A stretch of DNA of 64,000 bases from an uncultured Chloroflexia bacterium (GCA_963814375.1 CAWFCQ010000003.1:103393-167392); one strand, 5' to 3'. Shown: positions 15,229-32,253, numbered from the stretch's first letter. The notes: generated from the letters alone by a model not told the origin. Numbers and translations are program-made.

Positions 15229-15378
15229 TGTGGCGGGATGAGCGTGGATCGGCGCCAGGGTCCCCCTGCTAGACTGTGATCGAGGCGCCCGCCTCGTGCA
15301 GCGTCTCGCCAACGATTGACAACATCGCGGACCGCGAGGTCCGCTCAGCAATCACCGCGCGTTGCGACCGGAGTGGAG

Positions 15379-15738
15379 ATGGATCACACCGGACTGCTCT
15401 ACGTCATCGGTTTCGGGTTCGCCGCGACGACGTTCGTCTTCGGGACGATCCTGTTCAGCTGGCTGATCACCCATCGGCGCCGCAGCCCTCAGAAGGGCCT
15501 CCCGTACGAGTCGGGCGTCGACACCATCGGTGACACCTGGAGCCGGTTCGGACTGGCCTTCTATCTGTACGCCCTGCTCTTCGTGGCCTTCGACGTCGAG
15601 ATCATCTTCGTCTACCTGTGGGCCATCACGGTGCGGGCCATCGAGTTCCAGGGGATCGTCCTGATCGGCATCTTCCTTGCGATCTTGATGTTCGGCGAGC
15701 TGTACGCGTGGAAGAAGGGGGACCTGCGATGGCAATAG
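15379..15738 (+). CDS. nuoA: NADH-quinone oxidoreductase subunit A
   Basis: About 120 aa with three TM helices ([14 protein letters not shown] ... [16 protein letters not shown]) and the NuoA/ND3 pattern. First gene of the nuo cluster. Confidence 0.85.
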
Positions 15739-16409
15739 ACCGAACGCCTCCGAGCGGCCACACCGAACCGCCCACGTCCGGAACCGAGCTCGTCGCCAAC
15801 GACGGCGGGGGGCAGATCATCATCCCCGAGGGCGCGGGCGACGCCGATCTGCTGCGCCCGTTCGGGATGGAGGAGCATCCGCAGGGCGGGTTCCACGGCC
15901 TGCTCGAGGTGATTCCGACCAAAGCCGACCTCATCCTCGACCTGATCCGGGCGAACTCGCTATGGCCGCTCCTCTCGGGCCTGTCGTGCTGCGCGATCGA
16001 GATGATGAGCACGGCCACGAGCGTCAACGACATCGACCGATTCGGCTCGTTTCCGTTCCGTGCCAGCCCGCGACAGGCCGATGTTCTGATCGTGGCGGGG
16101 ACACTCACGACCAAGATGGCCGGGCCGCTCGTGCGCCTCTGGGAGCAGATGCCCGAGCCGAAATGGGTCGTGGCGATGGGGACCTGCACGACATCCGGCG
16201 GCCGCTTCAAGCGCTCCTACTCGGTCGTCCAGGGAGTCGACCGGGTCATGCCCGTCGATGTCTACGTGCCGGGCTGCCCGCCGCGCCCGGAGGGCCTCAT
16301 CTACGGGATGATGAAGCTCCACGAGCTCGTGAAGCAGCGGCGCGGCGAATGGAGCACGTTCGTCGACCGCGGACCGCAGCGGACGCGCTGGGAAGGAGAC
16401 GTTCGCTGA
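15728..16409 (+). CDS. nuoB: NADH-quinone oxidoreductase subunit B
   Basis: N2-cluster cysteines (SCCAIEMM ... GTCTTSGG ... VPGCPPRPE). The ATG overlaps the nuoA stop. Confidence 0.9.
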
Positions 16410-17047
16410 GCACGCCCGCGACCGCAGGCTCGCTCGTCCGAACCCTCACCGAGCGCCTGGGCCCCGACGTCGGCGACCTCTGGACCGATGAGGACACCGT
16501 CGAGTTCTCGATCGACGGTGCGCGCAACCTCGAGGTCCTGGCGCAGCTGCGCGACGATCCCGACCTCGGCTTCTTCATGCTGGCCGACGAGGCTGCCGTG
16601 GACTACGGCGTCGGCGCCCACTTCGAGGTGGTGTATCACCTGTTCAGCTGGAAGCACCCCGCCTGGCTTCGCGTGCGCGCCAAGGTCGACCGCGCCGACC
16701 CGCGCATCCGCTCCGTTACCCACCTGTGGGAGGGCGCGATGTTTCACGAGCGCGAGGCCTACGACATGATGGGCATCGTGTTCGAAGGCAACCGCGACCT
16801 GCGCCGGATCTACATGTCGCCCGACTACCGCAGCTTCCCGCAGCGTCGCGACTTCATCCTGCCCGACGACGCCGCCGACTCGCCCGCCGCCGGCGTCAAT
16901 CCGCTGGAGCGACCGGAGACGTGGGACCTTGCCCGCTTCCGTGACGCGCCGGCGGTGACGTATCCACCCGCGTCCGAGCGTGAGGACGCGCCGGCCGAGC
17001 GGGTCGAGTCTGGCGAGACGCTGGCCGATCGGAGCCGGCCGCGATGA
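16349..17047 (+). CDS. nuoC: NADH-quinone oxidoreductase subunit C
   Basis: NuoC/30-kDa subunit blocks (FEVVYHLFS ... [20 protein letters not shown]). The only in-frame ATG lies inside nuoB at 16349, so the start is uncertain. Confidence 0.75.
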
Positions 17048-18327
17048 CGACGACTGATCCGGAGGTCCGCATCCCGGACCCGATCGAGCTCGACCGGGCC
17101 GAGGAGGCCCGCCTGCGTGCCGCCTCCGGTTTGACGCCGCCCGTCGAGCGGCGGCCCGAGTACGCCGGCTTCGAGTCGGTCGGGATCCCGGACCGGCCGC
17201 CGCAGACGGACCGCGAGCGAGACGTCTACAGCCTCGAGGAGGGCGAGATGCTCCTCAACATGGGGCCACAGCATCCGTCCACCCACGGTGTCATGCGCCT
17301 GGTCGTGAAGGTGCGCGGCGAGGTCATCATCGACATCGACCCGGTGCTCGGCTACCTCCATCGCGGGATCGAGAAGCTGTGCGAGAACGCGACCTACACG
17401 ACCGTGCTCACCTACGTCGACCCGATGGACTACCTCGGCACGATGCACAACGAACACGCCCCGGCCATCGCCTTCGAGAAGCTGTACGGCATCCGGCCGC
17501 CGAAGCGGGCCGAGTACATCCGCGCGCTGGTGGTGGAGCTGAACCGCATCTTCAGCCACGGCCTGATGATGGGCTTCCTGGCGCTCGACATGGGCGGGCT
17601 GACCCCGATCCTCTACAGCTTCATCAACCGCGACGAGATCGTCGACATGCTGTCGGCCATCAGCGGACAGCGGATGCTCTTCAACTTCTTCCGCGTCGGC
17701 GGCGTGAACTGGGACACCAACGACGAGTTCCTCTCGCGGCTGGGGACGTGGCGCGGCACCGTCATGAAGAACATCGAGATGAACGAGCGGATGATCACGG
17801 AGAACGAGATCTTCACCGCCCGGACGCGCGGGATGGGCGTCCTGACCGGCGACGAGGCCATCTCGCTCGGTGTCACCGGCCCGAACCTGCGAGCGTCCGG
17901 CGTGCCGTTCGACGTGCGCAAGGCCCACCCGTACTCGATCTACCACGAGCTCGAGTTCGACGTCATCACCCACCAGACCGGCGACTCGTACGCCCGCTAC
18001 CTCCAGCGCATCGCCGAGGTCAAGCAGAGCATCCACCTCATCGACCAGATCGTGGACCGCATGCCGCACGGCGCGGTGCAGGCCCAGGTGCCGGGCATCA
18101 TTCGCCCCAAGCCGGGCCGCGCCTACGGCGCCGTCGAGTCGCCGCGCGGGCTCTACAGCGTCTACGCCATCAGCGATGGCGGGCCCAACCCGTATCGGTT
18201 CCGAATGCGCGACCCGTCGTTCATCAGCCTCCAGGCGCTGCCCAAGGTCATGCCAGGCAAGCTCATCGCCGACACGATGGCGGTGATGGCCAGCTTCGAC
18301 CCGGTCATGGGCGGCGTGGACAAGTAG
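17044..18327 (+). CDS. nuoD: NADH-quinone oxidoreductase subunit D
   Basis: 427 aa. NuoD/49-kDa signature (MLLNMGPQHPSTHGVMRL, IEKLCE, RMRDPSFISLQALP). Confidence 0.9.
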   Translation: MTTTDPEVRIPDPIELDRAEEARLRAASGLTPPVERRPEYAGFESVGIPDRPPQTDRERDVYSLEEGEMLLNMGPQHPSTHGVMRLVVKVRGEVIIDIDPVLGYLHRGIEKLCENATYTTVLTYVDPMDYLGTMHNEHAPAIAFEKLYGIRPPKRAEYIRALVVELNRIFSHGLMMGFLALDMGGLTPILYSFINRDEIVDMLSAISGQRMLFNFFRVGGVNWDTNDEFLSRLGTWRGTVMKNIEMNERMITENEIFTARTRGMGVLTGDEAISLGVTGPNLRASGVPFDVRKAHPYSIYHELEFDVITHQTGDSYARYLQRIAEVKQSIHLIDQIVDRMPHGAVQAQVPGIIRPKPGRAYGAVESPRGLYSVYAISDGGPNPYRFRMRDPSFISLQALPKVMPGKLIADTMAVMASFDPVMGGVDK

Positions 18328-18354: not shown

Positions 18355-19365
18355 ATGGACTGGGAGCTCGTCCTCGGCCTCGGGCGCTTCGTGCTTGCCA
18401 CGACGCTGATCCTGCTGCTCACCGTGCCGACCGCGTTCGTGATCATCCAGATGGAGATGAAGATCATCGCCCAGCTGGCGCTGCGCTTCGGGCCGAACCG
18501 GATCGGTCCGCGCGGCATTTTCCAGAGCACCATCCACGGCTTCAAGGTGCTCGCCAAGGAGGACACCGTCCCCGACCAGGCCGACCGGGTCGCCTTCACG
18601 ATGGCCCCCTGGATGGTGTACATGGCGGCGGCGATGAGCATGCTCGTCATGCCCTTCGCGCCCGGGGCGATCGCGGCCGACATGAACATCGGCATCGTCT
18701 ACTTCTTCGCCGTCCTCGGTCTCTCGGTGGTCGGCCTGCTCGTGGCCGGGTGGGCCAGCTACAACAAGTACTCGCTGCTCGGCGGGCTGCGCTCCGCGGC
18801 GCAGATGGTGAGCTACGAGATCCCGCTGACCCTGTCCATCGTCGGGGCGGTCGTCCTGGCCGGGACCCTCAGCTTCAGCGAGCTCATCGCCTGGCAGCTG
18901 GAGCACGGCTGGCTGCTCTGGTGGCAGCCGGTCGGCCTCGCCATCTTCTACGTCGCCAGCCTGGCCGAGATCAACCGCACTCCGTTCGACATGGTCGAGG
19001 CCGACAGCGAGCTGGTGGCGGGCCCGTTCACCGAGTACTCCGGGATGCGCTTCGGCTTCTTCTTCTTCGCTGAGTACGTCGCGCTGTTCATCATGAGCGG
19101 CATCCTCATCAGCCTCTTCTTCGGCGGCTGGCTGGCGCCGTGGCCATTTCCGGCCCAGCTGGGCGGGTTCGCCGGGACGCTGTACGGCATCTTTTGGTTC
19201 TTCCTCAAGACCTACATCTTCGTGGCGATCGCGGTCTGGCTGCGCGGCACCCTGCCCCGCGTCCGGGTCGACCAGCTGATGGGCATGGCCTGGAAGGTCC
19301 TGCTGCCGCTGGCGCTCATCAACCTGTTCGTCACGGCCATCGCGGTCGTCGTCTTCGAGCTGTAG
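18355..19365 (+). CDS. nuoH: NADH-quinone oxidoreductase subunit H
   Basis: 336-aa polytopic membrane protein with NuoH/ND1 motifs (RFGPNRIGP, GWASYNKYSLLGGLR, EYSGMRFGFFF). Confidence 0.9.
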   Translation: MDWELVLGLGRFVLATTLILLLTVPTAFVIIQMEMKIIAQLALRFGPNRIGPRGIFQSTIHGFKVLAKEDTVPDQADRVAFTMAPWMVYMAAAMSMLVMPFAPGAIAADMNIGIVYFFAVLGLSVVGLLVAGWASYNKYSLLGGLRSAAQMVSYEIPLTLSIVGAVVLAGTLSFSELIAWQLEHGWLLWWQPVGLAIFYVASLAEINRTPFDMVEADSELVAGPFTEYSGMRFGFFFFAEYVALFIMSGILISLFFGGWLAPWPFPAQLGGFAGTLYGIFWFFLKTYIFVAIAVWLRGTLPRVRVDQLMGMAWKVLLPLALINLFVTAIAVVVFEL

Positions 19366-19377: not shown

Positions 19378-20217
19378 ATGGCGTTCCCCGGTGCCGGCAT
19401 CGCCAAGGGCATGGCCACGACATTCCGCAACTTCTTCGCGCCCAAGGTGACGCGCCAGTACCCCGAGGAGCGGCCCCAGATCCCCGATCGCTGGCGCGGT
19501 CGGCTCGACCTGATCTACGACCCCTTCGGCGAGCACAAGTGCGAGGTCTGCTTCCAGTGCGCGCAGGTCTGCCCGGTCGAGGCCATCGACATGAGCGGAT
19601 TCGACTCGACCGGGAACCGGATCCGATACGGCCTGCCCGAGATCTACGACGAGCGCAAGGACGCCAACGCCTACCGCCGAGCGGGTCTGCCGGCTCGGCC
19701 GATGCGCAACGCCGCGCGCTGGGATGAGGCCGTCGACACGCCGTGGGTCGACGAGACGATCGACGCCTTCGGCGGCCGATCCGAGGCTCTGGTCGCGATC
19801 TTCCGGGCCGTCCAGGATCGCTACGGCTACCTGCCCGAGCATGCGCTGCGTCGGATCAGCGATCGGCTGACGATCCACTGGGCACAGGTCTTCGGCGCCG
19901 CCGGGCTGGGCGGCTTCCGCCTGCTCCCGGCCGGCGGCCACGTCATCACCGTGTGTGACTGTGCCGCCTGCCGCTTCGCGGGCGGCAGCGCGGTCCTGGC
20001 GGCGGTCGAGAGCGAGCTCGGCATCCGGGCGGGCGAGGAGACCCCGGACGGGACCTTCAGCCTGGAGCGCGGCACCGATGTCGGCGCGGGCTCGCTGAGC
20101 CCGGCGATCCGCATCGACACCCTCGTATTCGGGCCGGTCGACGCCGCCAAGGCTCGGCACATCGTCGGAGAGCGCCGCGCCACCGCAGCGCGCCCTGCGA
20201 GCGGGGCCGTCAGCTGA
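19378..20217 (+). CDS. nuoI: fused NuoI-like (single 4Fe-4S) / NuoE-like (thioredoxin-fold) subunit
   Basis: The N-terminus is NuoI-like (VTRQYPEERP ... CEVCFQCAQVCPVEAIDM) but carries only one CxxCxxCxxxCP motif. The C-terminal ~150 aa resemble NuoE (ALVAIFRAVQDRYGYLPEHAL ... GGHVITVCDCAACRFAGGSAVL ... TPDGTFSLERGTDVG), and the second NuoE Cys pair is absent. Confidence 0.75.
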   Translation: MAFPGAGIAKGMATTFRNFFAPKVTRQYPEERPQIPDRWRGRLDLIYDPFGEHKCEVCFQCAQVCPVEAIDMSGFDSTGNRIRYGLPEIYDERKDANAYRRAGLPARPMRNAARWDEAVDTPWVDETIDAFGGRSEALVAIFRAVQDRYGYLPEHALRRISDRLTIHWAQVFGAAGLGGFRLLPAGGHVITVCDCAACRFAGGSAVLAAVESELGIRAGEETPDGTFSLERGTDVGAGSLSPAIRIDTLVFGPVDAAKARHIVGERRATAARPASGAVS

Positions 20218-21569
20218 TGGCCAGCACGATCTCCCCCCAGATCAGCATTCTGCCCGGCGGCGAGCACCGCCTGCTGACCGACATCGGTCGGGTCGACCCT
20301 ACGAGCCTCGCCAGCTATCGCGAGCGCGGCGGGTACGGCGGCCTCGAGCGTGCGGTCACACGCCTCGCTCCAGAGGAGGTCATCGGTGAAATCGAGGCAG
20401 CCGGGCTACGCGGCCGCGGAGGCTCCGGCTACTCGACCGGCGCGAAGTGGCGCGTCGCGCGGGAGGCGCCCGGCGACCGCACGATCGTCGTCGCCAACCT
20501 CATGGGCGCGGATCCGAGCGCCCTCGGCGATCGGGCCCTGGCCGAGGGCAATCCGCACCTGGTCGTCGAGGGCGCGCTGATCGCCGCCTATGCCGTCGGA
20601 GCAACCGAGGCGATCATCGCCGTCCGCCGCGACTGGACCGATGCGATCGCGCGGCTCCGGGCCGCCGCGGCCGAGGCGACCGAGGCGCACCTGGCCGGCT
20701 ACCTCGTGCTTGGCACCGACACGAGCATCCAGCTCAGCGTGTGGGAAGGGTCCGGGGCGTACGTCGCGGGAGAGGAGACAGCGCTGCTGAACGCCCTGGC
20801 CGGCGACCGCGGCATGCCGGCCATTCGTCCGCCGTATCCGGCCACGCGCGGCCTGGGAGACGCACCGACCGTCGTCCAGAACGGCGAGACCCTGGCGCAT
20901 GTCGCGTGGATCCTGTCGCACTCGGCGGAGGCGTTCGCATCGGTCGGCAGCGCGGCCAGCCGGGGCACGAAGCTGGTCACGGTCATGGGGCGGGTCGGCG
21001 AGCCCGGCCTGGTCGAGGTCCCGCTGGGCACCTCGCTGCTCGACATCGTAACCCTCGCCGGCGGCGGCACCGGCGCGAGCAAGGCGGCCTTCGTGGGCGG
21101 GCCGGGCGGTGGCGCGATCGAGTCCGGCGCGTTCAGCGGCACGCCATACGACTACGAGGCGCTCGAGGCCGCCGGCGCGATCATCGGCTCGGGCGCCGTC
21201 CTCGTGGTGGATGCGGCAACCTGCATGGTCGACAGCGCTCGATTCTTCGTCGACTTCAGCGCCCGAGAGGCGTGCGGCAAGGCCGTCCCGTGCCGCATCG
21301 GTACCAAGCGCCTGGTCGAGGGGCTCGACCGCATCCTGGCCGGGACGCCCCGACCGAACGACTTCAATCTTCTCCGCGAGCTCTCGCGCAAGATGAGCGA
21401 CACGGCGCTGTGCAAGCTCGAGCGCCTGGCGCCGGGACCGATCCTCACGACGCTCGATCGGTTCGGCGACGAGTACCGGGCGCATGCCGAGCGCGGCGAG
21501 TGCCTGGCCGGCGCCTGCGCCACCGGCGGGCTGCCGCCCCTCATCTCCCCGTTGGCCGGGCTAGAGTAG
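20217..21569 (+). CDS. nuoF: NADH-quinone oxidoreductase subunit F (divergent)
   Basis: NuoF/51-kDa collinearity: FMN-site region GRGGSGYSTGAKW, NADH-site GEETALLNALAG, SLBB domain. The N3 cluster region reads EACGKAVPCRIG rather than the canonical CGKCxPC. Confidence 0.8.
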   Translation: MASTISPQISILPGGEHRLLTDIGRVDPTSLASYRERGGYGGLERAVTRLAPEEVIGEIEAAGLRGRGGSGYSTGAKWRVAREAPGDRTIVVANLMGADPSALGDRALAEGNPHLVVEGALIAAYAVGATEAIIAVRRDWTDAIARLRAAAAEATEAHLAGYLVLGTDTSIQLSVWEGSGAYVAGEETALLNALAGDRGMPAIRPPYPATRGLGDAPTVVQNGETLAHVAWILSHSAEAFASVGSAASRGTKLVTVMGRVGEPGLVEVPLGTSLLDIVTLAGGGTGASKAAFVGGPGGGAIESGAFSGTPYDYEALEAAGAIIGSGAVLVVDAATCMVDSARFFVDFSAREACGKAVPCRIGTKRLVEGLDRILAGTPRPNDFNLLRELSRKMSDTALCKLERLAPGPILTTLDRFGDEYRAHAERGECLAGACATGGLPPLISPLAGLE

Positions 21570-23963: not shown

Positions 23964-23989
23964 ACCGGTGCGGCGGGCGGCGTTGATGG

Positions 23990-24163: not shown

Positions 24164-24535
24164 TCAGAACTTGTTCAGGTTGACCTGCCACTCGTCGCAG
24201 TCGCTGACGACGGTGATGGTGTACTCGCCCTCGATCAGGTCGTTCACGAACGAGGTCGTGACGCGCTGCTGCTGCTCGTAGGTGAAGCCACCGTCGACCG
24301 AGGTGATCGAGACGACGACGTCCTCGCAGGTTGGTGCGGTGTACGAGAGGCGGTAGCGACCTGCCTGAAGCGGGAACGTCGTCCCCTCCTCGTCCTCCGA
24401 CGTCGCTCTCGCGGCCTCGGGAAATTCCGAGGCGCCGTCATCGCCGCCTCCGCCACCACCACCTCCGCCGCACGCGGCGAGAAGCACGGTCAACGAAAGG
24501 AGCGCGAGCAGCGTGGTCCGTCTCAGCATCTCCAC
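24164..24535 (-). CDS. small secreted lipoprotein (signal peptide + lipobox LAAC, poly-Gly linker)
   Basis: 123-aa ORF beginning MEMLRRTTLLALLSLTVLLAACGGGGGGGGG. It is antisense to the nuo cluster and sits between the nuoG-like gene and nuoJ. Confidence 0.55.
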   Translation of the reverse strand: MEMLRRTTLLALLSLTVLLAACGGGGGGGGGDDGASEFPEAARATSEDEEGTTFPLQAGRYRLSYTAPTCEDVVVSITSVDGGFTYEQQQRVTTSFVNDLIEGEYTITVVSDCDEWQVNLNKF

Positions 24536-24702: not shown

Positions 24703-25227
24703 GTGGGAGCCACGGCCCTGGACATCTCCAGCGTTCTTTTTTACCTGCTCGCGATCGGCGTCGTGGGCGCCGGGCTCGCGGTGGTCACGCTGCGCAACAT
24801 CATCCACTCGGCCGTGGCGATGATGGTCTGCTTCGGTTCACTGGCTGGCATGTACGCCCTCCTGGGTGCTCCGATCGTGGCTGCCGCGCAGGTGCTCATC
24901 TACCTCGGCGCGATCAGCGTCCTGATCCTCTTCGCCATCATGCTCACCCAGGCGGGCGACGCGAACCTGCCCGCGCCGTTCCACCGACAGCTGCCGATCG
25001 CGGTCGTGGTCGCCCTTGCGGTCACCGGCCTGGTCGGATGGGCGGTGGTCCAGACCGACTGGCAGATGGCCGCCGAGGTCACCGGCGCCGCGGTCGAGGC
25101 CATTGCGACGGCTGTCTTCACGACCTATGCGCTGCCGTTCGAGATCATCAGCCTGCTTCTCCTCGTCGCGATCATCGGTGCCATCTTCCTGGCGCGCCGC
25201 CCGGAAGAGGACGAGCGCGCGAACTGA
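24703..25227 (+). CDS. nuoJ: NADH-quinone oxidoreductase subunit J
   Basis: 174-aa membrane protein with the NuoJ/ND6 pattern (LIYLGAISVLILFAIML). Confidence 0.85.
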   Translation: MGATALDISSVLFYLLAIGVVGAGLAVVTLRNIIHSAVAMMVCFGSLAGMYALLGAPIVAAAQVLIYLGAISVLILFAIMLTQAGDANLPAPFHRQLPIAVVVALAVTGLVGWAVVQTDWQMAAEVTGAAVEAIATAVFTTYALPFEIISLLLLVAIIGAIFLARRPEEDERAN

Positions 25228-25230: not shown

Positions 25231-25536
25231 ATGGGGATCCAGGGCTATCTCATCGTCTCGGCGCTGCTGTTCGGCATCGGCGCGTTCGGGTTCATGGTGC
25301 GCCGCAACGCGATCCTCATGCTCATCAGCATCGAGCTCATGTTCAACGCGGTGAACCTGAGCCTCGTGGCCTTCAACGCCTATCTCCCGCCCGATGCGAA
25401 TGCCGGCGCCGTCTTCGCGCTCATGATCATGGCCGTCGCCGCCGCCGAGGTGACGGTCGGGCTGGCCCTCGTGATCGCGATCATCCGTACGCGCCAGACG
25501 GCCGAGGTCGACCAGTACGCCGATCTGAAGGAGTAG
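25231..25536 (+). CDS. nuoK: NADH-quinone oxidoreductase subunit K
   Basis: 101 aa with three TM helices. NuoK/ND4L motifs (MLISIELMFNAVNL, AAAEVTVGLALV). Confidence 0.9.
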   Translation: MGIQGYLIVSALLFGIGAFGFMVRRNAILMLISIELMFNAVNLSLVAFNAYLPPDANAGAVFALMIMAVAAAEVTVGLALVIAIIRTRQTAEVDQYADLKE

Positions 25537-25540: not shown

Positions 25541-27739
25541 ATGCCCATCGAGCTGCTGATCGCCCTCATTCCGGCGCTGCCCCTCGCCGGGTTCCTGTTC
25601 GCCGTGCTCGTCGGGCCGCGCATCGACCGCGTCCCGTCCCACGGTCACGACGAGCATCACGACGACGGCCACGCGAGCCACGATGATCACGGGCCGATCG
25701 ACGACTCGAGCTTCCGCGGCATCCCGACCGAGGAGGAGCAGGCGGCGACCAGCCCGCACGCCGGGCACGCCGACGATCTCGCCAATGCCGAGGGCGCCGC
25801 CGGCGTCATTCCCGCCGACATGAACGACGGCCTCGGGCAGGCCGGGCACGTGACCCCGGGCGGCCCGAAGCCTCGCTACCTGTCGTGGATCGTGCCGACC
25901 GGCCTGGTCGGGATCGGCTGGGTCATCAGCATGATCGTCGTCGCCGACGTGATCTTCGGCGGCAACGAGTACGAGGTGACGCTCTACGAGTGGATCGCAT
26001 CGGGCGACTTCCACGTCGAGATCAGCTTCCTCGTTGACAGCCTCACGGCGATGCTCCTGCTGGTCGTGAGCACGGTCGGGTTCCTCGTGCACGTCTACAG
26101 CATCGGCTACATGGACGGCGACCGCGGGTTCTGGCGCTTCTTCGCCTACCTCAACCTGTTCATGTTCTCGATGCTGCTCCTCATCCTGGGCGACAACTTC
26201 CTGATGCTGTACGTCGGCTGGGAGGCGGTCGGCCTGTGCAGCTACGCGCTCATCGGCTTCTGGTACAAGAAGCCGTCGGCGGCGGGAGCCGCCAAGAAGG
26301 CGTTCGTCGTCAACCGCATCGGCGACCTGGGCTTCGGCCTGGGCGTGATGATGATCTGGGTCAACCTCGGCACGCTGAGCTTCCACGAGGTTTTCGAGAC
26401 CATCGGCACGCTCGACGAGGGCACGGTGACGGTCATCGCCCTCCTGCTCTTCGCCGGCGCCGTGGGCAAGTCAGCCCAGTTTCCGCTCCACGTCTGGCTG
26501 CCGGATGCCATGGAAGGGCCGACCCCCGTCAGCGCCCTCATCCACGCCGCGACGATGGTCAACGCCGGCGTGTACATGGTCGCTCGCGCCAACCCGATCT
26601 TCGCCGAGGCGCCGACCGCGATGCTGACCGTCGCCACCATCGGCGCATTCACCGCCATCTTCGCCGCGGCCATCGCACTGACCCAGAACGACATCAAGAA
26701 GGTCCTCGCCTACAGCACCGTCAGCCAGCTGGCCTACATGTTCCTGGCGCTCGGTGTCGGAGCCTGGGTCTCGGCCATCTTCCACCTCGTCAGCCACGGC
26801 TTCTTCAAGGGCCTGCTGTTCATGGGCTCCGGCTCCGTCATCCACGGGGCCGGCGGCGAGCAGGACATGCGGTACATGGGCAACCTGCGGGCGAGGATGC
26901 GCTGGACCTACGTGACGATGGTCATCGGCTCGCTGGCCCTGGCCGGCATCCCGCTCTTCGCCGGCTTCTTCAGCAAGGACGAGATCCTGGCCGAGACCTT
27001 CAACCGCGGCTACTACGTCTTCTACCTGATCGGCGTGATCGTGGCCTTCATGACCGCCTTCTACACGTTCCGGATGATCTTCATGACGTTCTGGGGTGAG
27101 TGGCGCGGGCCGGCCGCGATCTGGGAGCACGTCCACGAGAGCGCGGTGACCATGGTCGCGCCGCTCGTGCTCCTGTCGGTGCCCACGATCTTCGCCGGGC
27201 TTCTGCTGGGCATCCCGCCGGAGGGCGGCGTCATCCACACCTGGCTGGAGGAGGTCTTCCACGCTTCGGAGGAGGCCGGAGCGGGCATCCAGCCGGGCTC
27301 GATCGCAGCGACGAGCCACGAGGGGTTCCAGCTCCTCGGCTTCGGCGGCCTGCTGCTCGGCAGCGGCGCGCTGGTGGCGGCGCTCGGCGTCTGGCTGGCC
27401 TATCGCTGGTACGTCCGTGATCCCGAGGCGCCGGCCCGCTTCGTCGAGCGCTTCCCAGCCGGGCTCGGCCCGGGGATGTATCGGGCCAGCGTCAACAAGT
27501 ACTACGTCGACGACATTTACGGGCTCGTGTTTGCCCGTGGCGGCGTCCTGCTGGCCGAGGCGCTGTGGTGGTTCGACGCGAGGATCATCGACGGCATCGT
27601 GAACGGCGCCGGCTGGCTGGCCTCGACCATCGGTGGTGGCCTGCGCAAGGTCCAGACCGGACGGGTCGAGAACTACGGGCTCGGCATCGCGGCCGGGCTG
27701 GCCGTGGTGCTCCTCGCCTACGCGACGGTGGTGCGCTGA
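25541..27739 (+). CDS. nuoL: NADH-quinone oxidoreductase subunit L with a His/Asp-rich N-proximal insertion
   Basis: 732 aa with NuoL/ND5 antiporter-like motifs (YVGWEAVGLCSYALIGFW, QFPLHVWLPDAMEGPTPVSALIHAATMV). A ~100-aa low-complexity insertion (HGHDEHHDDGHASHDDHGP ...) follows TM1. Confidence 0.9.
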   Translation: MPIELLIALIPALPLAGFLFAVLVGPRIDRVPSHGHDEHHDDGHASHDDHGPIDDSSFRGIPTEEEQAATSPHAGHADDLANAEGAAGVIPADMNDGLGQAGHVTPGGPKPRYLSWIVPTGLVGIGWVISMIVVADVIFGGNEYEVTLYEWIASGDFHVEISFLVDSLTAMLLLVVSTVGFLVHVYSIGYMDGDRGFWRFFAYLNLFMFSMLLLILGDNFLMLYVGWEAVGLCSYALIGFWYKKPSAAGAAKKAFVVNRIGDLGFGLGVMMIWVNLGTLSFHEVFETIGTLDEGTVTVIALLLFAGAVGKSAQFPLHVWLPDAMEGPTPVSALIHAATMVNAGVYMVARANPIFAEAPTAMLTVATIGAFTAIFAAAIALTQNDIKKVLAYSTVSQLAYMFLALGVGAWVSAIFHLVSHGFFKGLLFMGSGSVIHGAGGEQDMRYMGNLRARMRWTYVTMVIGSLALAGIPLFAGFFSKDEILAETFNRGYYVFYLIGVIVAFMTAFYTFRMIFMTFWGEWRGPAAIWEHVHESAVTMVAPLVLLSVPTIFAGLLLGIPPEGGVIHTWLEEVFHASEEAGAGIQPGSIAATSHEGFQLLGFGGLLLGSGALVAALGVWLAYRWYVRDPEAPARFVERFPAGLGPGMYRASVNKYYVDDIYGLVFARGGVLLAEALWWFDARIIDGIVNGAGWLASTIGGGLRKVQTGRVENYGLGIAAGLAVVLLAYATVVR

Positions 27740-29259
27740 TGGACGGCGTCCCCCTGCTCACCCTGATCGTCTTCATGCCCGCACTCGGCGCGCTCCTCCT
27801 GCTGTTCGTGCCGGCCGACAACCATCGCGCCATCCGATGGATCGCCCTCGCCACGGCGCTGCTCACCTTTGCGCTCAGCCTGGTCCTGCTCGGCTACAAC
27901 CCCGACGGCAGCGAGTTCCAGTTCCGCGAGGACCTCGAGTGGATCGACTTCTTCGGCATGCGCTACACGCTCGGCGTGGACGGCATCAGCGTCGTGCTGG
28001 TGATCCTGACCACGCTGCTGAGCGTCGTGGCCATCCGCTACAGCTGGGAGCCGATCCAGACGAAGGTGCGGGCCTACTACGCCACGATGCTGGTGCTGAT
28101 GGTCGGCATGCTCGGCGTGTTCGTCGCCCTCGACCTCTTCCTCTTCTACGTCTTCTGGGAAGTCAGCCTCTTCCCGATGTACTTCGTCATCGGCGTCTGG
28201 GGCGGCCCGCGTCGCATCTACGCCACGGTGAAGTTCGTCATCTACACCCTGGTCGGCTCGCTGCTCATGCTCGTCGCCATCCTGGCCGTGGCGATCGCGT
28301 ACGCATCGGCCGGCAACCCGTTCACCTTCAGCTACGAGGCGCTCCGCGGCTTCGCCTACGCCGATTCGCTCCAGGCCGTCGCATTCATCGCCTTCTTCCT
28401 CGCCTTCGCCATCAAGGTGCCGATGTGGCCGCTCCACACCTGGCTGCCCGATGCGCACGTCGAGGCCCCCACCGCCGGCTCGATCATCCTGGCTGGCGTG
28501 CTGCTCAAGCTCGGCGGCTACGGCTTCCTGCGCTACAACCTGCCGCTCCTGCCCGATGCCGCCGTGACCTTCGCGCCGATCATCATCGGGTTGAGCATCA
28601 TCGCCATCATCTACGGCGGCCTGGTGGCGATGGTGCAGCCCGACATGAAGAAGCTGGTGGCGTACTCGAGCGTGAGCCACATGGGCTTCGTCATGCTCGG
28701 CGCGTTCGTCTTCAACACCCAGGGCCTCCAGGGCGCCGTCTACCAGATGATCAGCCACGGCATCACGACCGGTGCGCTGTTCCTGCTGGTGGGCATCATC
28801 TACGAGCAGACCCACGATCGCGAGATCTCGCACATGGGCGGCCTCAACGCCCGGCTGCCCCACTACGCGGCCATGTTCGGCCTCTTCACCTTCGCCAGCA
28901 TCGGGCTGCCTGGGCTGTCGGGGTTCATCGGCGAGTTCCTCGTCATCTTGGGCGCCTTCGAGTCGAACGGCTTCGTGGCGGCGGCGGCGATGGTGGTGGT
29001 CATCATCAGCGCGGTCTACATGCTGTGGATGTTCCAGCGCGTCTTCTTCACTGTGCCATCCGATTGGATGCGCCGATGGTGGCCGTCGCTGCGCGACATG
29101 AGCAGCGGCGAGTGGCAGTCGCTCGCGCCGCTGGTGGTGCTGGTCGTGGCGCTGGGGGTCTATCCCGGACCGATCCTCGAGATCATCAGCGCGCCGGTCG
29201 AGCGAATCATCGAGGCGGTCAACGGCGCCGGGCTCACCGGCCTCGGGCCGCTGTGGTGA
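27739..29259 (+). CDS. nuoM: NADH-quinone oxidoreductase subunit M
   Basis: NuoM/ND4 motifs (FFLAFAIKVPMWPLHTWLPDAHVEAPTAGS). The start MDGVPLL overlaps the nuoL stop (TGATG). Confidence 0.9.
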   Translation: MDGVPLLTLIVFMPALGALLLLFVPADNHRAIRWIALATALLTFALSLVLLGYNPDGSEFQFREDLEWIDFFGMRYTLGVDGISVVLVILTTLLSVVAIRYSWEPIQTKVRAYYATMLVLMVGMLGVFVALDLFLFYVFWEVSLFPMYFVIGVWGGPRRIYATVKFVIYTLVGSLLMLVAILAVAIAYASAGNPFTFSYEALRGFAYADSLQAVAFIAFFLAFAIKVPMWPLHTWLPDAHVEAPTAGSIILAGVLLKLGGYGFLRYNLPLLPDAAVTFAPIIIGLSIIAIIYGGLVAMVQPDMKKLVAYSSVSHMGFVMLGAFVFNTQGLQGAVYQMISHGITTGALFLLVGIIYEQTHDREISHMGGLNARLPHYAAMFGLFTFASIGLPGLSGFIGEFLVILGAFESNGFVAAAAMVVVIISAVYMLWMFQRVFFTVPSDWMRRWWPSLRDMSSGEWQSLAPLVVLVVALGVYPGPILEIISAPVERIIEAVNGAGLTGLGPLW

Positions 29260-29270
29260 GGGGCTGACGG

Positions 29271-30731
29271 ATGGACATGGTCGACGACCTCGTCACTCTC
29301 CTGCCGGAGCTGATCCTGACGGTGCTCGTCCTCGTCATCATCACCACGGACCTCTTCATCTCGCGCGCGAACAAGTGGCTGCTGACCCCGCTCACCGTGG
29401 CCGGCCTCATCCTGGCCGGGGCGGCGTGCTTCGTGGTGTGGGACGTCAACGAGACGGTGTACGGCGGCTTCTACGTCGTCGACGACCTGTCGGTGTTCCT
29501 GAAGGGCGCCACCATCCTGATCGGCATCCTCTCCGCCCTCTTCGCGCCGGCCTACCTCCTCGTCCGACGCATCCCGCTCGGCGAGTTCAACACGATCCTG
29601 GTGACCGCGCTCATCGGCATGTGCGTGCTGGCCTCGAGCAGCGACTTCATCACCCTCTTCCTGGGCCTCGAGCTGATGACGATGCCGTCCTACCTGCTGA
29701 CCGGGCTCCACAAGACCGACCGATACAGCAACGAGGGCGGGCTCAAGTACTTCCTGCTCGGCAGCTTCGCCAGCGCCATCCTCCTGTTCGGCGTAGCCTG
29801 GATGTACGGCCTCACCGGCACCACGAACATCGGCGCCATCGCGGCGTCGCTCGACGGCCAGATGAGCGCCGGCATCCTGGTGGCGGTCGGGTTCCTGACC
29901 GTGGGCGCGACCTTCAAGATCGCGGCGGTGCCGTTCCACTACTGGACGCCGGACGCCTACCAGGGCGCCCCGACACCCATCACCGGATTCCTCTCGGTCG
30001 GCCCCAAGCTCGGCGCCTTCGCGCTCGTGATCCGGATCTTCGTCGAGGCCCTGGCCCCGTTGCGGACCGATTGGCTGGCGGTGTTCCTGGTCCTGACGGT
30101 GCTGACCATGACGATCGGCAACGTGGTGGCGCTGACGCAGACCAACGTCAAGCGGATGCTGGCCTACTCGAGCATCGCCCACACCGGCTACATCATGGCC
30201 GGCCTCGCCGCGTACGCGAACGCGACCGATCCGGAGGCCGCGGCCCAGGGCATCCAGGCGGTCCTCTTCTACCTCCTCGCCTACGCGGTCATGAACATCG
30301 CGGCCTTCGCGATGGTGGCGATGCTCCAGCGCGACACGGGCCGCTTCGGTGGGCTCAACTCCTTCGCCGGCCTCGCCTCGCGCGCCCCGTGGCACGCCGC
30401 CGCGATGACCGTGCTGCTGCTGAGCCTGACCGGAATTCCCCCTACCGTCGGCTTCTTCGCGAAGCTCCTCATCCTGCTCGCCACGGTCGAGTCCGGGCTC
30501 ATCTGGCTGGCGGTCGTCGTCGCGCTCAACGCGGCGCTGGCGGCGTTCTACTACCTGCGCGTCGTGGTCTACATGTACATGCGCGATCCCGAGCCGGAGC
30601 CCGCTCCGATCGACACCAACCCGTTCGGCTCGGTGGCCCTGGCCGTCTCGGTGGCCGGCGTGATCGCGCTCGGGATCTTCCCGGGAGCCATCCTGCGCCT
30701 GGTCGAGGTCTCTGCGGCCAGTATCTTCTAG
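29271..30731 (+). CDS. nuoN: NADH-quinone oxidoreductase subunit N
   Basis: 486 aa. NuoN/ND2 motifs (KIAAVPFHYWTPDAYQGAPTPITGF). Confidence 0.9.
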   Translation: MDMVDDLVTLLPELILTVLVLVIITTDLFISRANKWLLTPLTVAGLILAGAACFVVWDVNETVYGGFYVVDDLSVFLKGATILIGILSALFAPAYLLVRRIPLGEFNTILVTALIGMCVLASSSDFITLFLGLELMTMPSYLLTGLHKTDRYSNEGGLKYFLLGSFASAILLFGVAWMYGLTGTTNIGAIAASLDGQMSAGILVAVGFLTVGATFKIAAVPFHYWTPDAYQGAPTPITGFLSVGPKLGAFALVIRIFVEALAPLRTDWLAVFLVLTVLTMTIGNVVALTQTNVKRMLAYSSIAHTGYIMAGLAAYANATDPEAAAQGIQAVLFYLLAYAVMNIAAFAMVAMLQRDTGRFGGLNSFAGLASRAPWHAAAMTVLLLSLTGIPPTVGFFAKLLILLATVESGLIWLAVVVALNAALAAFYYLRVVVYMYMRDPEPEPAPIDTNPFGSVALAVSVAGVIALGIFPGAILRLVEVSAASIF

Positions 30732-30735
30732 GCGG

Positions 30736-32253
30736 ATGGCGACCCCCGACGCCGAGGCCCTGGCCGATGCGGAGCTCGCCGCCGCAGCCTCGCGGCTGCT
30801 CGGCGACCGGCGACTGATCATCGCCACGAACCGAGGTCCGGTCACCTTCACGACGACCGCCGGCGGCGATCTGCGGCCGCGCCGCGGCTCGGGAGGGCTC
30901 GTCACGGCGCTGGGCCAGGTCGGCCGGCACGTGCCGATCACCTGGGTCGCCGCGGCCATGAGCGAGGGCGACCGACGCGCCGCCGCCGACCCGCGTCTCA
31001 TGCGCAGCGTGGAGGTCGGCGGCGAGTCGCTCCGCCTCCGATTCGCATCCGTCGAGCGGACGGTGTACGAGCAGGCATACAACGTCATCGCCAACCCGCT
31101 GCTGTGGTTCCTCCAGCACCAGATGTGGAACCTGCCCGAGCGGCCGGTCATCGATGCCGGTGTCATGCGCGCCTGGCAGCGTGGCTACCTCCCGCTCAAC
31201 GAGGCCTTCGCGCGTGCGGTCCTTGCCCAGGCACGGGGGGACCGGCGCCCGCGGATCATGCTCCACGACTACCACCTCTACCTCGCCGCCGAGCCGATCC
31301 GGCGGGCGCGTCCCGGCGCCGTGCTTAGCCATTTCACCCACATCCCGTGGCCGCCCTCTTCGATATGGCAGACGATCGCGCCGCCCATCCGCGAGGGCAT
31401 CGCTCGAGGGCTCCTCGCCAACGACGTCGTCGGATTCCAGACGGAGCGCTACGCGCACAACTTCCTGCGGACGGTCGAGTCGTTCGTGCCGGAGGCGCGG
31501 GTCGACTACGACGAGAGCGTCGTGCGCTGGCGGCGCCGAACGACCCGCGTGCGCTCGTACCCGATCAGCATCGACGTCGAATCGACGCGCCGCCTCGCCG
31601 AGTCGCGCGCCGCACGGCGCCGGGCGGACCAGCTCCAGGGCGGGGCGCGCGAGCTCGTCCTCGTCCGCGTCGACCGGCTCGAGCCGTCGAAGAACATCCT
31701 GCGCGGCTTCCTCGCCTACGAGGCGCTCCTCCAGCGCACGCCGCGCCTCCGCGGCCGGATCAGCTTCCTCGCCTTCCTCGTCCCGTCGCGCACCGGCCTG
31801 CGTGAGTACGGGCACTACGGCCGCGAGGTGCAGAACGCTGTCGACCGCATCAACGCCCGATTCGGCCGGGCCGGATGGCGCCCGATCCAGCTCTTCTACG
31901 AGAACGATTACGCCCAGGCCCTGGCAGGGCTGGCCATCGCCGACGTGGTGCTCGTCAATCCCCTCGTCGACGGTATGAACCTCGTCGCCAAGGAGGCGGT
32001 CGTCGTCTCGCGCCGCGACGCGGTGCTGGTCCTGTCCGAGACCGCCGGCGCCTTCGACCAGATGTCGGCGGGCGCGCTCCCGGTTGCGCCCGCCGACGTG
32101 GTGGGCACCGCCGATGCCCTGGCGACCGCCCTCGCCATGGCACCCGACGAGCGGCGGAAACGGCTGGCGGGTATGCGCCGGGGGGTGGAGGCGGAGGACA
32201 TCACGTGGTGGCTGCGCCGCCAGCTCGAGGATCTCGCCGACCTGGTGGAGTGA
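30736..32253 (+). CDS. otsA: alpha,alpha-trehalose-phosphate synthase (GT20)
   Basis: OtsA motifs (NRGPVTF, GGLVTAL, IMLHDYHLYL, NDVVGFQT, VNPLVDGMNLVAKE). It starts 4 nt after the nuoN stop. Confidence 0.9.
   Translation: MATPDAEALADAELAAAASRLLGDRRLIIATNRGPVTFTTTAGGDLRPRRGSGGLVTALGQVGRHVPITWVAAAMSEGDRRAAADPRLMRSVEVGGESLRLRFASVERTVYEQAYNVIANPLLWFLQHQMWNLPERPVIDAGVMRAWQRGYLPLNEAFARAVLAQARGDRRPRIMLHDYHLYLAAEPIRRARPGAVLSHFTHIPWPPSSIWQTIAPPIREGIARGLLANDVVGFQTERYAHNFLRTVESFVPEARVDYDESVVRWRRRTTRVRSYPISIDVESTRRLAESRAARRRADQLQGGARELVLVRVDRLEPSKNILRGFLAYEALLQRTPRLRGRISFLAFLVPSRTGLREYGHYGREVQNAVDRINARFGRAGWRPIQLFYENDYAQALAGLAIADVVLVNPLVDGMNLVAKEAVVVSRRDAVLVLSETAGAFDQMSAGALPVAPADVVGTADALATALAMAPDERRKRLAGMRRGVEAEDITWWLRRQLEDLADLVE

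Follow-up and report, generated by a model that had tools for sequence, protein, structure and literature searches.

In the structures of Nfn and Stn, a non-cysteine ligand adjoins the FAD on a cluster of the A subunit, and the branch ending in the FdhF-like domain is a non-functional remnant in both (PMC10482914, PMC11829005). Among the conserved features of Bfu enzymes are an AFM motif, a GGPSG motif and an FMN-adjacent Asp (PMC12018979). With regard to complex I, Schut et al. (2022) predicted 'Nuo-Bfu' enzymes in Geobacter, Deferribacteres, Planctomycetes and Nitrospirae, and did not report a Nuo clade from Chloroflexi or Actinobacteria (PMC9304861). A GltD-like flavoprotein has a precedent in an Mbx-like operon, where it is said to replace NuoI (PMC4758237). 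No description of a split-NuoI, Nfn-fed complex I was found in the searchable literature.

The cluster described here belongs to a soil bacterium and encodes a respiratory complex I with a split NuoI. It lies in the 64-kb stretch of DNA that was analysed, referred to below as the window.

Organization of the nuo cluster

Thirteen co-directional genes, with GC3 values of 0.85 to 0.97 and the expected Pfam families, were found in the order nuoA-B-C-D-H-[IE]-F-G*-J-K-L-M-N, as the preliminary description of this DNA had read it (Table 1). The membrane arm (A, H, J, K, L, M and N) and the Q-module (B, C and D) were all encoded in this one cluster, with Pfam/NCBIfam matches above the cutoff for each. 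Both had been called conventional, in agreement with the retention in the translations of all four N2 cysteines of NuoB (in SCCAIEM, GTC and GCPP) and of the quinone-site His/Tyr motifs of NuoD (HPSTHG and MDY). Similarly, no separate nuoE was present in the cluster or in the rest of the 64-kb window, as had been stated. The starts of nuoA (15379), nuoB (15729), nuoC (16349) and nuoM (27736) were corrected; that of nuoC is the sole in-frame start codon, and the same nuoB/nuoC overlap occurs in the close relative L003.

The two neighbouring genes already noted were found where they had been placed. otsA, which begins 4 nt past the nuoN stop, is a conserved neighbour and no subunit of the enzyme; it stands 3' of nuoN in many relatives, in some at 60% identity. 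The antisense lipoprotein gene that follows the G-like gene sits in a variable G*/nuoJ spacer (70 bp to 7.5 kb), outside the enzyme, and is present in some close relatives only.

A search of related genomes for this gene order, as had been proposed, found it to be identical in 83 of 83 loci, mostly of uncultured Limnocylindria (Chloroflexota), all the relatives compared being uncultured MAGs. The split-NuoI arrangement is a lineage-wide trait and no local oddity. In a second lineage of MAGs, one of them labelled Thermoleophilia, the same split and gene order went together with a BfuB that is complete and with NuoE cysteines of the canonical kind, and the form in the window is therefore a reduced derivative. 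The earlier wording that nuoH had moved to a position ahead of nuoI misdescribes the change: it was E-F-G that shifted, from its place after D and before H to the middle of the I gene, and to our knowledge nuoH precedes nuoI in every nuo operon. The split of NuoI, the Nfn/Stn ancestry of E-F-G* and the lineage-wide spread had been missed.

Table 1. Features of the nuo cluster and its neighbours, with positions in the window
Feature	Position	Strand	Product and basis
nuoA	15379..15738	+	119 aa; PF00507, E=1.6e-29; ATG at 15379 preceded by GGAG
nuoB, N2 cluster subunit	15729..16409	+	226 aa; PF01058; TIGR01957, 221 bits vs cutoff 143; CC...C...CP ligands
nuoC	16349..17047	+	232 aa; PF00329; start inferred; 61-nt overlap with nuoB
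nuoD	17044..18327	+	427 aa, N-terminal extension of ~65 aa; PF00346; NF004739, 415 bits vs cutoff 360
nuoH	18355..19365	+	336 aa; PF00146, E=1e-106
NuoI N-half, IE residues 1-85	19378..19632	+	membrane-proximal N-terminus; C55, C58, C61, C65
Linker, NuoI N-half to NuoE-like domain, IE residues 86-123	19633..19746	+	no family match
NuoE/BfuC-like thioredoxin-like domain, IE residues 124-279	19747..20217	+	PF01257
F, BfuB/NuoF flavoprotein core	20217..21569	+	450 aa; PF01512 + PF10589
G* body, residues 1-736	21576..23783	+	colinear with Csac NfnA, StnC and Tsi NfnA; Pfam
NuoI C-half, G* residues 737-795	23784..23963	+	strand; second CxxCxxCxxxCP (C749, C752, C755, C759); FE motif
Small lipoprotein gene, antisense	24164..24529	-	signal peptide; lipobox LLAAC; GC3 0.85
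nuoJ	24703..25227	+	PF00499
nuoK	25231..25536	+	PF00420
nuoL	25541..27739	+	732 aa; PF00361 + PF00662
nuoM	27736..29259	+	507 aa; overlaps nuoL at ATGA; paralogue of L and N; translation, GC3
nuoN	29271..30731	+	PF00361
otsA (trehalose-6-phosphate synthase)	30736..32253	+	PF00982; ATG at 30736

NuoI on two polypeptides

The N-terminal half of NuoI, with the first CxxCxxCxxxCP motif, was joined to a NuoE-like domain in IE (19378-20217), and the C-terminal half made up about the last 55 residues of G* (21576-23963). The fusion of NuoI to a NuoE-like domain that had been described thus holds for the N-terminal half, and not for the C-terminal one, which ends G*. The three genes IE, F and G* stand between the halves or carry them, and encode a probable NADPH-binding module related to the soluble, electron-bifurcating Nfn/Stn transhydrogenases.

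The N-terminal half aligned with residues 24-82 of Escherichia coli NuoI and 6-71 of Thermus thermophilus Nqo9, IE residues 11-81 matching positions 1-70 of the NuoI profile TIGR01971 (57 bits). Similarly, the C-terminal half aligned with residues 90-128 of E. coli NuoI and 86-126 of Nqo9, G* residues 737-778 matching positions 71-112 of the profile (54 bits). The halves covered complementary, non-overlapping portions of the PDB NuoI chains and of TIGR01971, and once concatenated they scored 111.2 bits, just under the cutoff of 113.05. The four motif cysteines were invariant both in IE (68 sequences) and in G* (75 sequences). The two CxxCxxCxxxCP motifs were thus carried by two proteins and not by a single NuoI polypeptide, and neither an intact NuoI nor any further NuoI-like sequence was found in the 64-kb window. 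Modelled by itself, the N-terminal half gave low confidence (pLDDT 31-47). The linker that follows it showed 86% identity among close relatives and 34% among distant ones.

In a 2x[4Fe-4S] ferredoxin fold, each CxxCxxCxxxCP motif provides three cysteines to one cluster and one to the other; therefore, the NuoI halves would have to co-fold to build N6a and N6b. Co-folded in this manner, they would lock IE and G* onto NuoB, NuoD and NuoH.

Subunits of the IE-F-G* cassette

Subunit by subunit, the cassette is nearest to NfnABC/StnABC and not to NuoEFG, and we take it to be an Nfn/Stn (Bfu-family) derivative. The best matches of all three subunits were Csac NfnABC (9BOV), StnABC (8OH5) and Tsi NfnABC (9N5U), the reference structures being those of Caldicellulosiruptor saccharolyticus (9BOV/9BP5), Sporomusa ovata (8OH5) and Thermococcus sibiricus (9N5U).

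G* was colinear over residues 35-759 with Csac NfnA (1.5e-167) and StnC (1.7e-152), and also with Tsi NfnA. It comprised a [2Fe-2S] domain (35-111), a FAD/NAD(P)H domain of the GltD type that holds two 4Fe-4S clusters (129-547), a further cluster site (C613-C624) and a ferredoxin-like 2x[4Fe-4S] domain (C674-C727). All its ligand cysteines, of the StnC type, were kept and invariant in 75 sequences, and an invariant H203 occupied the position of the Nfn ligand Lys170 at the FAD-proximal cluster. The GltD-like domain (PF07992 and PF14691) showed the features of GltD/NfnB, namely, the FAD GxGxxG, the second Rossmann GGGxxA with YRR, and the two N-terminal 4Fe-4S clusters; G235-G240, G367-G369 and Y391-R392-R393 were invariant in A1. 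NADPH is the likely nucleotide, judged solely from the conserved YRR and homology. In line with the chimera that had been described in place of NuoG, G* scored 98 bits against the NuoG model (cutoff, 470), and Pfam revealed no molybdopterin-like domain in it. The FdhF-like domain of the Nfn/Stn A subunit was also absent, with the NuoI C-terminal half in its place; the alignment to NfnA/StnC runs exactly to the first cluster of that domain. The single-chain structure model of G* was of poor quality.

The NuoE-like domain was modelled confidently (pLDDT 72-94), its best PDB matches being HydC, Csac NfnC and StnA. Its ligand set was non-canonical, with CxCxxC (C193, C195 and C198) plus D234: in 68 sequences the three cysteines were invariant, position 234 was D, C or E, and position 238 was never Cys. 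In comparison with the canonical four-cysteine N1a set, the fourth Cys is lacking and the third is an Asp.

F matched Csac NfnB (4e-121) and StnB (1.6e-117) ahead of NuoF (about 1e-77). It aligned with residues 96-524 only of the 584 of StnB, and both Pfam and the alignment indicated the absence of the N-terminal 2Fe-2S (thioredoxin-like) and the C-terminal 2x[4Fe-4S] Fer4 domains. The N3 motif, rightly described as non-canonical, reads C353-G-K-A-V-P-C359, the middle Cys of CxxCxxC being missing from all 66 relatives. The N3/B1 site is left with three cysteines (C353, C359 and C399) and an invariant E402. Of the extra sites that a BfuB has besides FMN and B1, namely, B2/B5 and the C-terminal B3/B4 ferredoxin domain, only the B5/Zn-site residues (C336, H423, C429 and C434) remained. 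The Bfu motifs AFM and GGPSG and Asp195 were replaced in the F family by A-L-G, GGPGG and Met/Phe/Ile/Tyr, respectively. Given that F lacks the B2, B3 and B4 domains and these motifs, a ferredoxin-binding domain is predicted to be absent, and the enzyme probably does not bifurcate electrons. Whether F binds FMN or NADH is uncertain, since the flavin-adjacent Asp and two nucleotide-pocket aromatics (W75/F76, now small or acidic residues) are replaced. Scoring of the Fe-S ligands thus found altered sets in both the NuoE-like domain and F.

Electron route, alternatives and known systems

The reading that we favour, and consider reasonably probable from sequence comparison, is that of one membrane-bound, proton-pumping complex I in which a stripped-down relative of NfnABC/StnABC has taken the place of the NADH-input module and is welded to the Q-module via the split NuoI. 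NADPH would reduce the FAD of the GltD-like domain, and the electrons would then travel through the chain of clusters in G*. In soluble Nfn/Stn a side branch is dead-ended in the FdhF-like domain; here it would continue to N6a/N6b, N2 and quinone, driving proton pumping. A second branch would run from the [2Fe-2S] cluster through the three-cysteine N3' cluster to FMN in F, with NAD(H) exchange probably retained. With an NADPH branch and an FMN/NAD(H) branch, the enzyme would therefore be a dual-input, non-bifurcating NAD(P)H:quinone oxidoreductase, and NADPH would probably feed the pump, either alongside NADH or in its place. An open electrical link between the NADH and NADPH sites would short-circuit both pools unless gated.

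A bolder version, to which we give little credence, is that of a merger between complex I and an Nfn-type transhydrogenase, in which NADPH, NAD(H) and quinone (and ferredoxin in relatives with a full Bfu F) share one branched Fe-S wire, and the reduced form could couple exergonic quinone reduction and the proton pump to NADH/NADPH exchange. If so, transhydrogenation would be pulled by quinone or linked to the pmf, or else NADPH would drive a pump that recovers full proton stoichiometry on low-potential menaquinone, and the merger would have been enabled structurally by the split NuoI.

It is improbable that the enzyme is an ordinary NADH:quinone oxidoreductase, with NADH oxidised at the FMN of F and a GltD-like domain that has a structural or regulatory role or serves as a minor side entrance. 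The acidic GEE residues of NuoF disfavour NADPH, and F kept them (185-187), together with the FMN glycine loop, K77/W78, N94 and N222/T225, in 66 sequences, scoring 333 bits against nuoF_fam. However, this lies below the NuoF cutoff (559 bits), and the loss of the flavin-adjacent Asp, AFM and one N3 Cys is family-wide. Moreover, G*, the best-conserved redox subunit except NuoB, was far more conserved than F (89.5% versus 73% identity among close relatives, and 61% versus 45% among distant ones; dN/dS of G*, 0.09-0.21), and its FAD/NAD(P)H motifs and all clusters inward of the FAD were invariant.

Equally improbable in our view is an NADPH-only complex I in which F and the NuoE-like domain, as remnants of the Nfn ancestor, either serve as catalytically dead scaffolding or store electrons. 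Both are the fastest-evolving redox parts; the three-cysteine N3 and the replaced residues of the F pocket fit such a role, and L088, another reduced lineage, lost a different N3 Cys. Nevertheless, dN/dS in F was still 0.18-0.38, with many FMN/NADH motif residues invariant in 66 sequences, and the extra invariant C195 of IE and the invariant E402 of F look like replacement ligands and not like decay.

Far less probable is a soluble Nfn/Stn-like transhydrogenase merely encoded within an 11-subunit nuo operon whose complex I has another donor. Soluble relatives exist, and L089/L090 carry a Por-linked version with the same half-ferredoxin pieces outside nuo clusters, but the sole NuoI sequence of the cluster and the window is that of the halves fused to IE and G*, the tetramerisation (FdhF-like) domain of Stn is absent, and the cassette kept its nuoH-nuoJ position in 83 of 83 loci. 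Finally, a decaying N-module or an assembly artefact, to which a frameshift between the NuoI N-terminal half and the NuoE-like part in L003 and the missing canonical ligands might point, is largely refuted by the single IE ORF in >100 independent protein clusters, with frameshifts confined to a few assemblies, and by purifying selection and the recurrence of the architecture in two phyla.

IE, F and G* are all under purifying selection, with dN/dS values (0.13-0.36 for IE) similar to those of other nuo genes. Thus, of the preliminary suggestion of a remodelled, possibly NAD(P)H-type or inactive N-module, the remodelling stands and the NAD(P)H type is likely, in view of the invariant GltD-like domain and YRR, whereas inactivity does not agree with dN/dS values of 0.09-0.38 and remaining ligands invariant in 66-75 relatives.

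Returning to the dual-input reading, the cassette shares with NfnABC/StnABC a NuoE-like C, a NuoF-like B and an A subunit of the Nfn-type BfuA kind (in which a NuoG-type Fe-S domain contains an inserted GltD-like domain), with the A-subunit cluster ligands, the non-Cys FAD-proximal ligand, the B5/Zn residues and a branched cluster wire. Unlike them, it is fused to two NuoI halves inside a nuo operon, its A lacks the FdhF-like domain and its B both terminal cluster domains, B1/N3 has three cysteines, C1 has a non-canonical ligand set, His stands in for the Lys ligand, and AFM, GGPSG and Asp195 are lost. Canonical complex I (E. coli Nuo and T. thermophilus Nqo) has in common with it A, B, C, D, H, J, K, L, M and N, the N2 ligands, the quinone-site residues, the NuoI cluster motifs and the FMN loop of F, and differs in that here NuoI extends over two polypeptides, E-F-G lie within nuoI and not between D and H, G* has a GltD flavoprotein and no molybdopterin-like domain, and F and E are Bfu-descended with altered clusters. 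Like 'Nuo-Bfu', this is a complex I cluster with Bfu-type EFG, a predicted membrane-bound proton pump with unconventional input, but 'Nuo-Bfu' was described with 14 subunits (NuoA-N) and a BfuB with a ferredoxin domain, and with no mention of a GltD domain or a NuoI split (PMC9304861). A conserved Q/P-module with a swapped input module is also seen in Fpo with FpoF, in cyanobacterial NDH-1 with ferredoxin and in Mbx-like clusters; unlike the Mbx-like case, here NuoI is kept but split, and the input is a whole three-subunit Nfn-type unit.

Gene cluster and the divided nuoI

Between 15.3 and 32.3 kb the window (70% GC) carries 13 co-directional genes with a third-codon-position GC of 0.85 to 0.97, which were assigned by Pfam families. 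In translation, the four N2 ligands of NuoB are all present, as are the quinone-site His and Tyr motifs of NuoD, and no molybdopterin domain appeared among the Pfam matches of G*, the third protein of the electron-input cassette. According to the Pfam and motif reading, the facts listed in the preliminary description (the cluster, its gene order and its odd input module) were essentially right. NuoB and NuoD bear N-terminal extensions of about 60 to 65 residues ahead of their conserved domains, and in NuoL (732 aa) the Proton_antipo_N domain begins at residue 151, presumably later than in E. coli NuoL.

Features of the nuo cluster and other large genes of the window
Feature	Coordinates	Product or assignment
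nuoA	15379-15738	NuoA (Pfam)
nuoB	15729-16409	NuoB (Pfam)
nuoC	16349-17047	NuoC (Pfam)
nuoD	17044-18327	NuoD (Pfam)
nuoH	18355-19365	NuoH (Pfam)
IE	19378-20217	279 aa; sole Pfam match, NuoE-type thioredoxin-like [2Fe-2S] family, residues 125-264
F	20217-21569	450 aa; NuoF-like (Pfam)
G*	21576-23963	795 aa; 2Fe-2S, dihydropyrimidine-dehydrogenase-type 4Fe-4S, pyridine-nucleotide-disulphide oxidoreductase and several Fer4 families
G*/nuoJ spacer	23964-24702	739 nt; contains an antisense ORF
nuoJ	24703-25227	NuoJ (Pfam)
nuoK	25231-25536	NuoK (Pfam)
nuoL	25541-27739	NuoL (Pfam)
nuoM	27736-29259	NuoM
nuoN	29271-30731	NuoN (Pfam)
otsA and trehalose-phosphatase gene	30736-33279	convergent genes; otsA begins 4 nt past nuoN
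Unusually large gene	43238-46630 (-)	1130-aa fusion of zinc ribbon, adenylate/guanylate cyclase domain and AAA-type ATPase domain
Unusually large gene	53301-58442 (-)	1713-aa protein with PMT-type glycosyltransferase domains

Residues 8-77 of IE, which include the first CxxCxxCxxxCP of NuoI, align with the N-terminal half of that subunit (E. coli NuoI 24-82, plant TYKY 76-144, T. thermophilus Nqo9 6-71). The final 60 residues of G* align with the other half (E. coli NuoI 90-128, Nqo9 86-126) and contain the second CxxCxxCxxxCP followed by an FE motif. Similarly, positions 1-70 of the NCBIfam model TIGR01971 (NuoI, 121 positions) were matched by IE 11-81 (57 bits) and positions 71-112 by G* 737-778 (54 bits); when both pieces were joined artificially, positions 1-112 were matched with 111.2 bits, just below the curated cutoff of 113.05. 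No further NuoI-like or nuo-like sequence was found within the 64 kb window. Thus, the E-F-G block was relocated from the gap between nuoD and nuoH into nuoI, at the loop that separates its two cluster motifs, and the NuoI halves are now fused to the first and last proteins of the block. The earlier proposal that nuoH had moved ahead of nuoI does not hold, since the alignments of the IE and G* ends indicate that nuoH stayed and the block shifted. In the structural model of IE the NuoI half had a pLDDT of 31 to 47, as expected for half of a cluster-binding domain modelled alone, and the model was informative solely for the NuoE-like domain.

The antisense ORF in the spacer between G* and nuoJ encodes a textbook lipoprotein signal, MLRRTTLLALLSLTVLLAAC. 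This junction is variable in the window's clade, with spacers of 70 bp to about 7.5 kb (loci L003-L069) that often hold an antisense small lipoprotein with poly-Gly after the lipobox; the lipoprotein gene is absent from the junction in the 60%-identity relatives. Owing to this variability, nuoJ-N may form a separate transcription unit in the window's clade. A promoter and terminator scan of the spacer, of little diagnostic value in a 70% GC organism, gave zero promoter-like sites and a single terminator-like hairpin, located inside nuoJ. At the other end of the cluster, otsA lies 3' of nuoN in many relatives, some of them only 60% identical in G*, a hint that the genes for trehalose synthesis and for the membrane arm are transcribed together.

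Ancestry and cluster ligands of the IE-F-G* cassette

Residues 35-759 of G* are colinear with the A subunits of the electron-bifurcating Bfu-family transhydrogenases, namely NfnABC of Caldicellulosiruptor saccharolyticus (Csac; 9BOV_A, 1.5e-167), StnABC of Sporomusa ovata (8OH5_C, A-type subunit, 1.7e-152) and NfnABC of Thermococcus sibiricus (9N5U_A, 4.6e-141), and the match to NuoG is confined to the 2Fe-2S domain of about 100 residues. Against the corresponding B subunits of these enzymes F scored 1e-117 to 4e-121, versus about 1e-77 against genuine NuoF. F aligns solely to residues ~96-524 of the 584-residue StnB, and therefore has neither the N-terminal [2Fe-2S] nor the C-terminal 2x[4Fe-4S] ferredoxin domain. 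HydC, Csac NfnC and StnA were the closest sequence neighbours of the NuoE-like domain, and its confident model (residues 121-272, pLDDT 72 to 94) gave the same neighbours by structure; the AlphaFold2 model of G* (20-sequence alignment, mean pLDDT 45) was too poor for a fold search. These matches identify the cassette as an Nfn/Stn derivative rather than a modified NuoEFG. The proposal of a remodelled, possibly NAD(P)H-type input module was thus supported, G* having kept GltD-type FAD/NAD(P)H motifs besides its closest likeness to Nfn/Stn.

Two other origins were discarded. An assembly chimera is out because many independent assemblies agree, and a recently inserted foreign cassette because its GC and GC3 match those of the flanking nuo genes and the order is fixed in relatives at 60% identity.

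Cluster ligands were audited in 66 to 75 relatives taken from one-genome-per-species loci. In G*, the [2Fe-2S] ligands C69/80/83/97 and the 4Fe-4S cysteines C133/137/141, C180/184/188, C613/616/618/624, C674/677/680/684 and C717/720/723/727 were invariant, so that all cluster-ligating cysteines of StnC have invariant counterparts. The cysteines of the NuoI C-half (749/752/755/759) were also invariant, as were the FAD GxGxxG, the second Rossmann fold and Y391-R392-R393. The FAD-proximal cluster of Stn has an unusual Lys ligand, StnC K170 (PMC10482914), and K170 likewise ligates that of Csac Nfn (PMC11829005); at this position the G* family carries an invariant His203.

In F, C353, C359 and C399 were invariant, and the second N3 Cys was lost in all 66 sequences (Ala in 57, Thr in 9). 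Glu402, also invariant, is a candidate replacement N3 ligand; Stn has Gly there, as does canonical NuoF (LCxLG motif). The FMN glycine loop and K77, W78, N94, D99, D105, R106, G185-E186-E187, N222 and T225 are conserved, and the 'NADE' motif reads N-L-M-G. The Bfu hallmarks AFM, GGPSG and the flavin-adjacent Asp (PMC12018979) correspond in F to A-L-G, GGPGG and Met, Phe, Ile or Tyr, respectively. F keeps the residues of the B5/Zn site (C336, H423, C429, C434), a site absent from non-bifurcating homologues (PMC11829005).

The NuoE-like domain has invariant C193, C195 and C198; its canonical third Cys position is occupied by Asp (40 sequences), Cys (13) or Glu (11), and the canonical fourth is a Cys in none of the audited relatives. 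Since the deeper relatives present four cysteines (CxCxxC plus one), the extra C195 probably stands in for the lost fourth ligand, and the domain in the window's clade would be a Cys3-Asp site rather than clusterless.

Against twelve close relatives G* had pairwise dN/dS values of 0.09-0.21, F of 0.18-0.38 and IE of 0.13-0.36, compared with 0.16-0.26 for NuoD and 0.2-0.4 for NuoL/M/N. With such values and with invariant ligands the cassette is not decaying, and the suggestion of an inactive N-module is not supported. Among the redox subunits, conservation of G* (89.5% identity to close relatives, 60.6% to distant ones) was second only to that of NuoB, and the lowest values were those of F (73% and 45%) and of the NuoE-like domain (70% and 29%). 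NuoF is usually among the best-conserved subunits of classical complex I, and the usual pattern is thus reversed.

Distribution and related architectures

Homologues of G* with 59 to 94% identity are numerous and metagenomic, the named ones belonging to 'Candidatus Limnocylindria/Limnocylindrales' or Chloroflexota MAGs. A one-genome-per-species scan confirmed 587 related stretches; in the best 80 of these the order A-B-C-D-H-IE-F-G-J-K-L-M-N was found in all, wherever flanks were present, and most of the 80 bear the label Limnocylindria or Chloroflexota (an uncultured lineage from soil and fresh water). The split-NuoI variant is therefore class-wide. In a relative with 93% identity (L003, 7783-8616) a frameshift falls precisely where the NuoI N-half gives way to the NuoE-like domain; an assembly error is the probable cause, given that IE is a single ORF of about 279 aa in more than 100 clusters, though a version with two genes could also exist naturally.

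With IE as the query, HMMER gave full-length matches down to 30% identity across the full library. One group (1192 proteins at E<=1e-20, one labelled Thermoleophilia) has the same gene order as the window and an F that is a complete BfuB of 636-643 aa, in which both terminal domains (2Fe-2S at the N-terminus, 2x[4Fe-4S] at the C-terminus) are present, as are NGDEGDPGAFMD, CGKCVPC and GGPSGG. In this group NuoE has canonical cysteines and G terminates in the NuoI C-half. Locus L087 (1321-6023 of a 49% GC contig) is wired differently: its BfuB-like F (1048 aa) carries GltD at the C-terminus, and the NuoI C-half forms the end of a minimal NuoG-type protein of 265 aa that has a canonical Hx3Cx2Cx5C N5 motif. 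Locus L088 (953-2257) encodes a short F of 434 aa that has lost the third N3 Cys (CGRCVPG), not the second as in the window's clade, so that two reduced lineages have each lost an N3 ligand independently. Taken with the full-Bfu and GltD-on-F relatives, these short forms place the window form at the reduced end of a wider, unreported series.

The same half-ferredoxin pieces occur outside any nuo cluster, on a Por-linked Bfu enzyme (L089/L090). In L089 (1804-7726, 70% GC contig) PorD-PorA are followed by a NuoI-N-like half fused to BfuC, a full BfuB, and a 1060-aa protein that joins BfuA and GltD to a NuoI-C-like half and a PorB-like TPP domain. From these fusions, the split ferredoxin device would also dock an Nfn-type module onto pyruvate:ferredoxin oxidoreductase.

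Annotation pipelines name IE 'subunit E' and G* 'formate dehydrogenase' or 'FAD-dependent oxidoreductase'. With nuoI and nuoG unrecognised, these genomes are probably scored as having no complete complex I.

Proposed electron route and comparison with known systems

The sequences establish which domains the cassette contains, which cluster ligands it has and how its genes are fused; the route is proposed. In 2x[4Fe-4S] ferredoxin folds, each CxxCxxCxxxCP binds one cluster through three of its ligands and the second cluster through the remaining one. Both NuoI halves would thus have to co-fold, building N6a and N6b and thereby clamping IE and G* to the Q-module. In GltD/NfnB-type domains NAD(P)H is oxidised at FAD and its electrons pass to two 4Fe-4S clusters, and NADPH at the G* FAD is the best-supported donor. 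In Nfn/Stn, electrons run from FAD through the A-subunit clusters and B1 to FMN, and a side branch, seen as a remnant without function, leads to an FdhF-like domain that lacks the pterin (PMC10482914, PMC12018979, PMC11829005). In G* the NuoI C-half takes the place of that domain, so that the former dead branch would turn into the exit to N2 and quinone. The FMN site of F would probably still trade electrons with NAD(H) through the [2Fe-2S] and three-Cys N3' clusters. Because B2, B3, B4 and the Bfu motifs are missing, the enzyme should neither bind ferredoxin nor bifurcate.

Two other readings are still alive, an enzyme that uses NADPH only, with F as a scaffold, and a coupled transhydrogenase; the main reason for both is that NADH and NADPH sites on one wire risk short-circuiting the two pools. 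If NADPH does feed the pump through G*, this would be a natural NADPH-linked complex I, and models of how these bacteria balance energy and redox would have to change.

The 14 core subunits of complex I are regarded as fixed, and a single NuoI is among them. Here, across a class, one of these subunits is divided and an NADPH-binding Nfn derivative stands in place of the NADH module; a core subunit whose two halves flank the coding region of a three-protein module appears to be a new feature. The full-Bfu relatives (one labelled Thermoleophilia), the variants with GltD fused to F and the reduced Limnocylindria form would be living intermediates, in which soluble flavoprotein modules were attached to, and then simplified on, a complex I scaffold, making the long-debated origin of the N-module directly testable.

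'Nuo-Bfu' complexes have been predicted in Deferribacteres/Proteobacteria and Planctomycetes/Nitrospirae, with a 14-subunit Nuo(A-N) cluster and a BfuB with a ferredoxin domain (Schut et al. 2022, PMC9304861); in contrast to what is found here, that text mentions no GltD domain, NuoI, or Chloroflexi/Actinobacteria Nuo clade. Many Chloroflexi genomes were noted, with nothing further, to be without a recognisable NuoG (Spero et al. 2015), and in Mbx-like operons a GltD-like flavoprotein stands in place of NuoI (Degli Esposti 2015, PMC4758237). In searches of the literature open without subscription we found neither a split NuoI nor a complex I with a GltD domain described. The window enzyme differs from canonical Nuo14 in that NuoI is not a single polypeptide and E, F and G are non-canonical, and from the Bfu family in that B2/B3/B4 and the Bfu motifs are missing. 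It is of an already known sort, a complex I with a swapped input module, and its sequence clearly points to descent from both canonical Nuo and the Bfu family.
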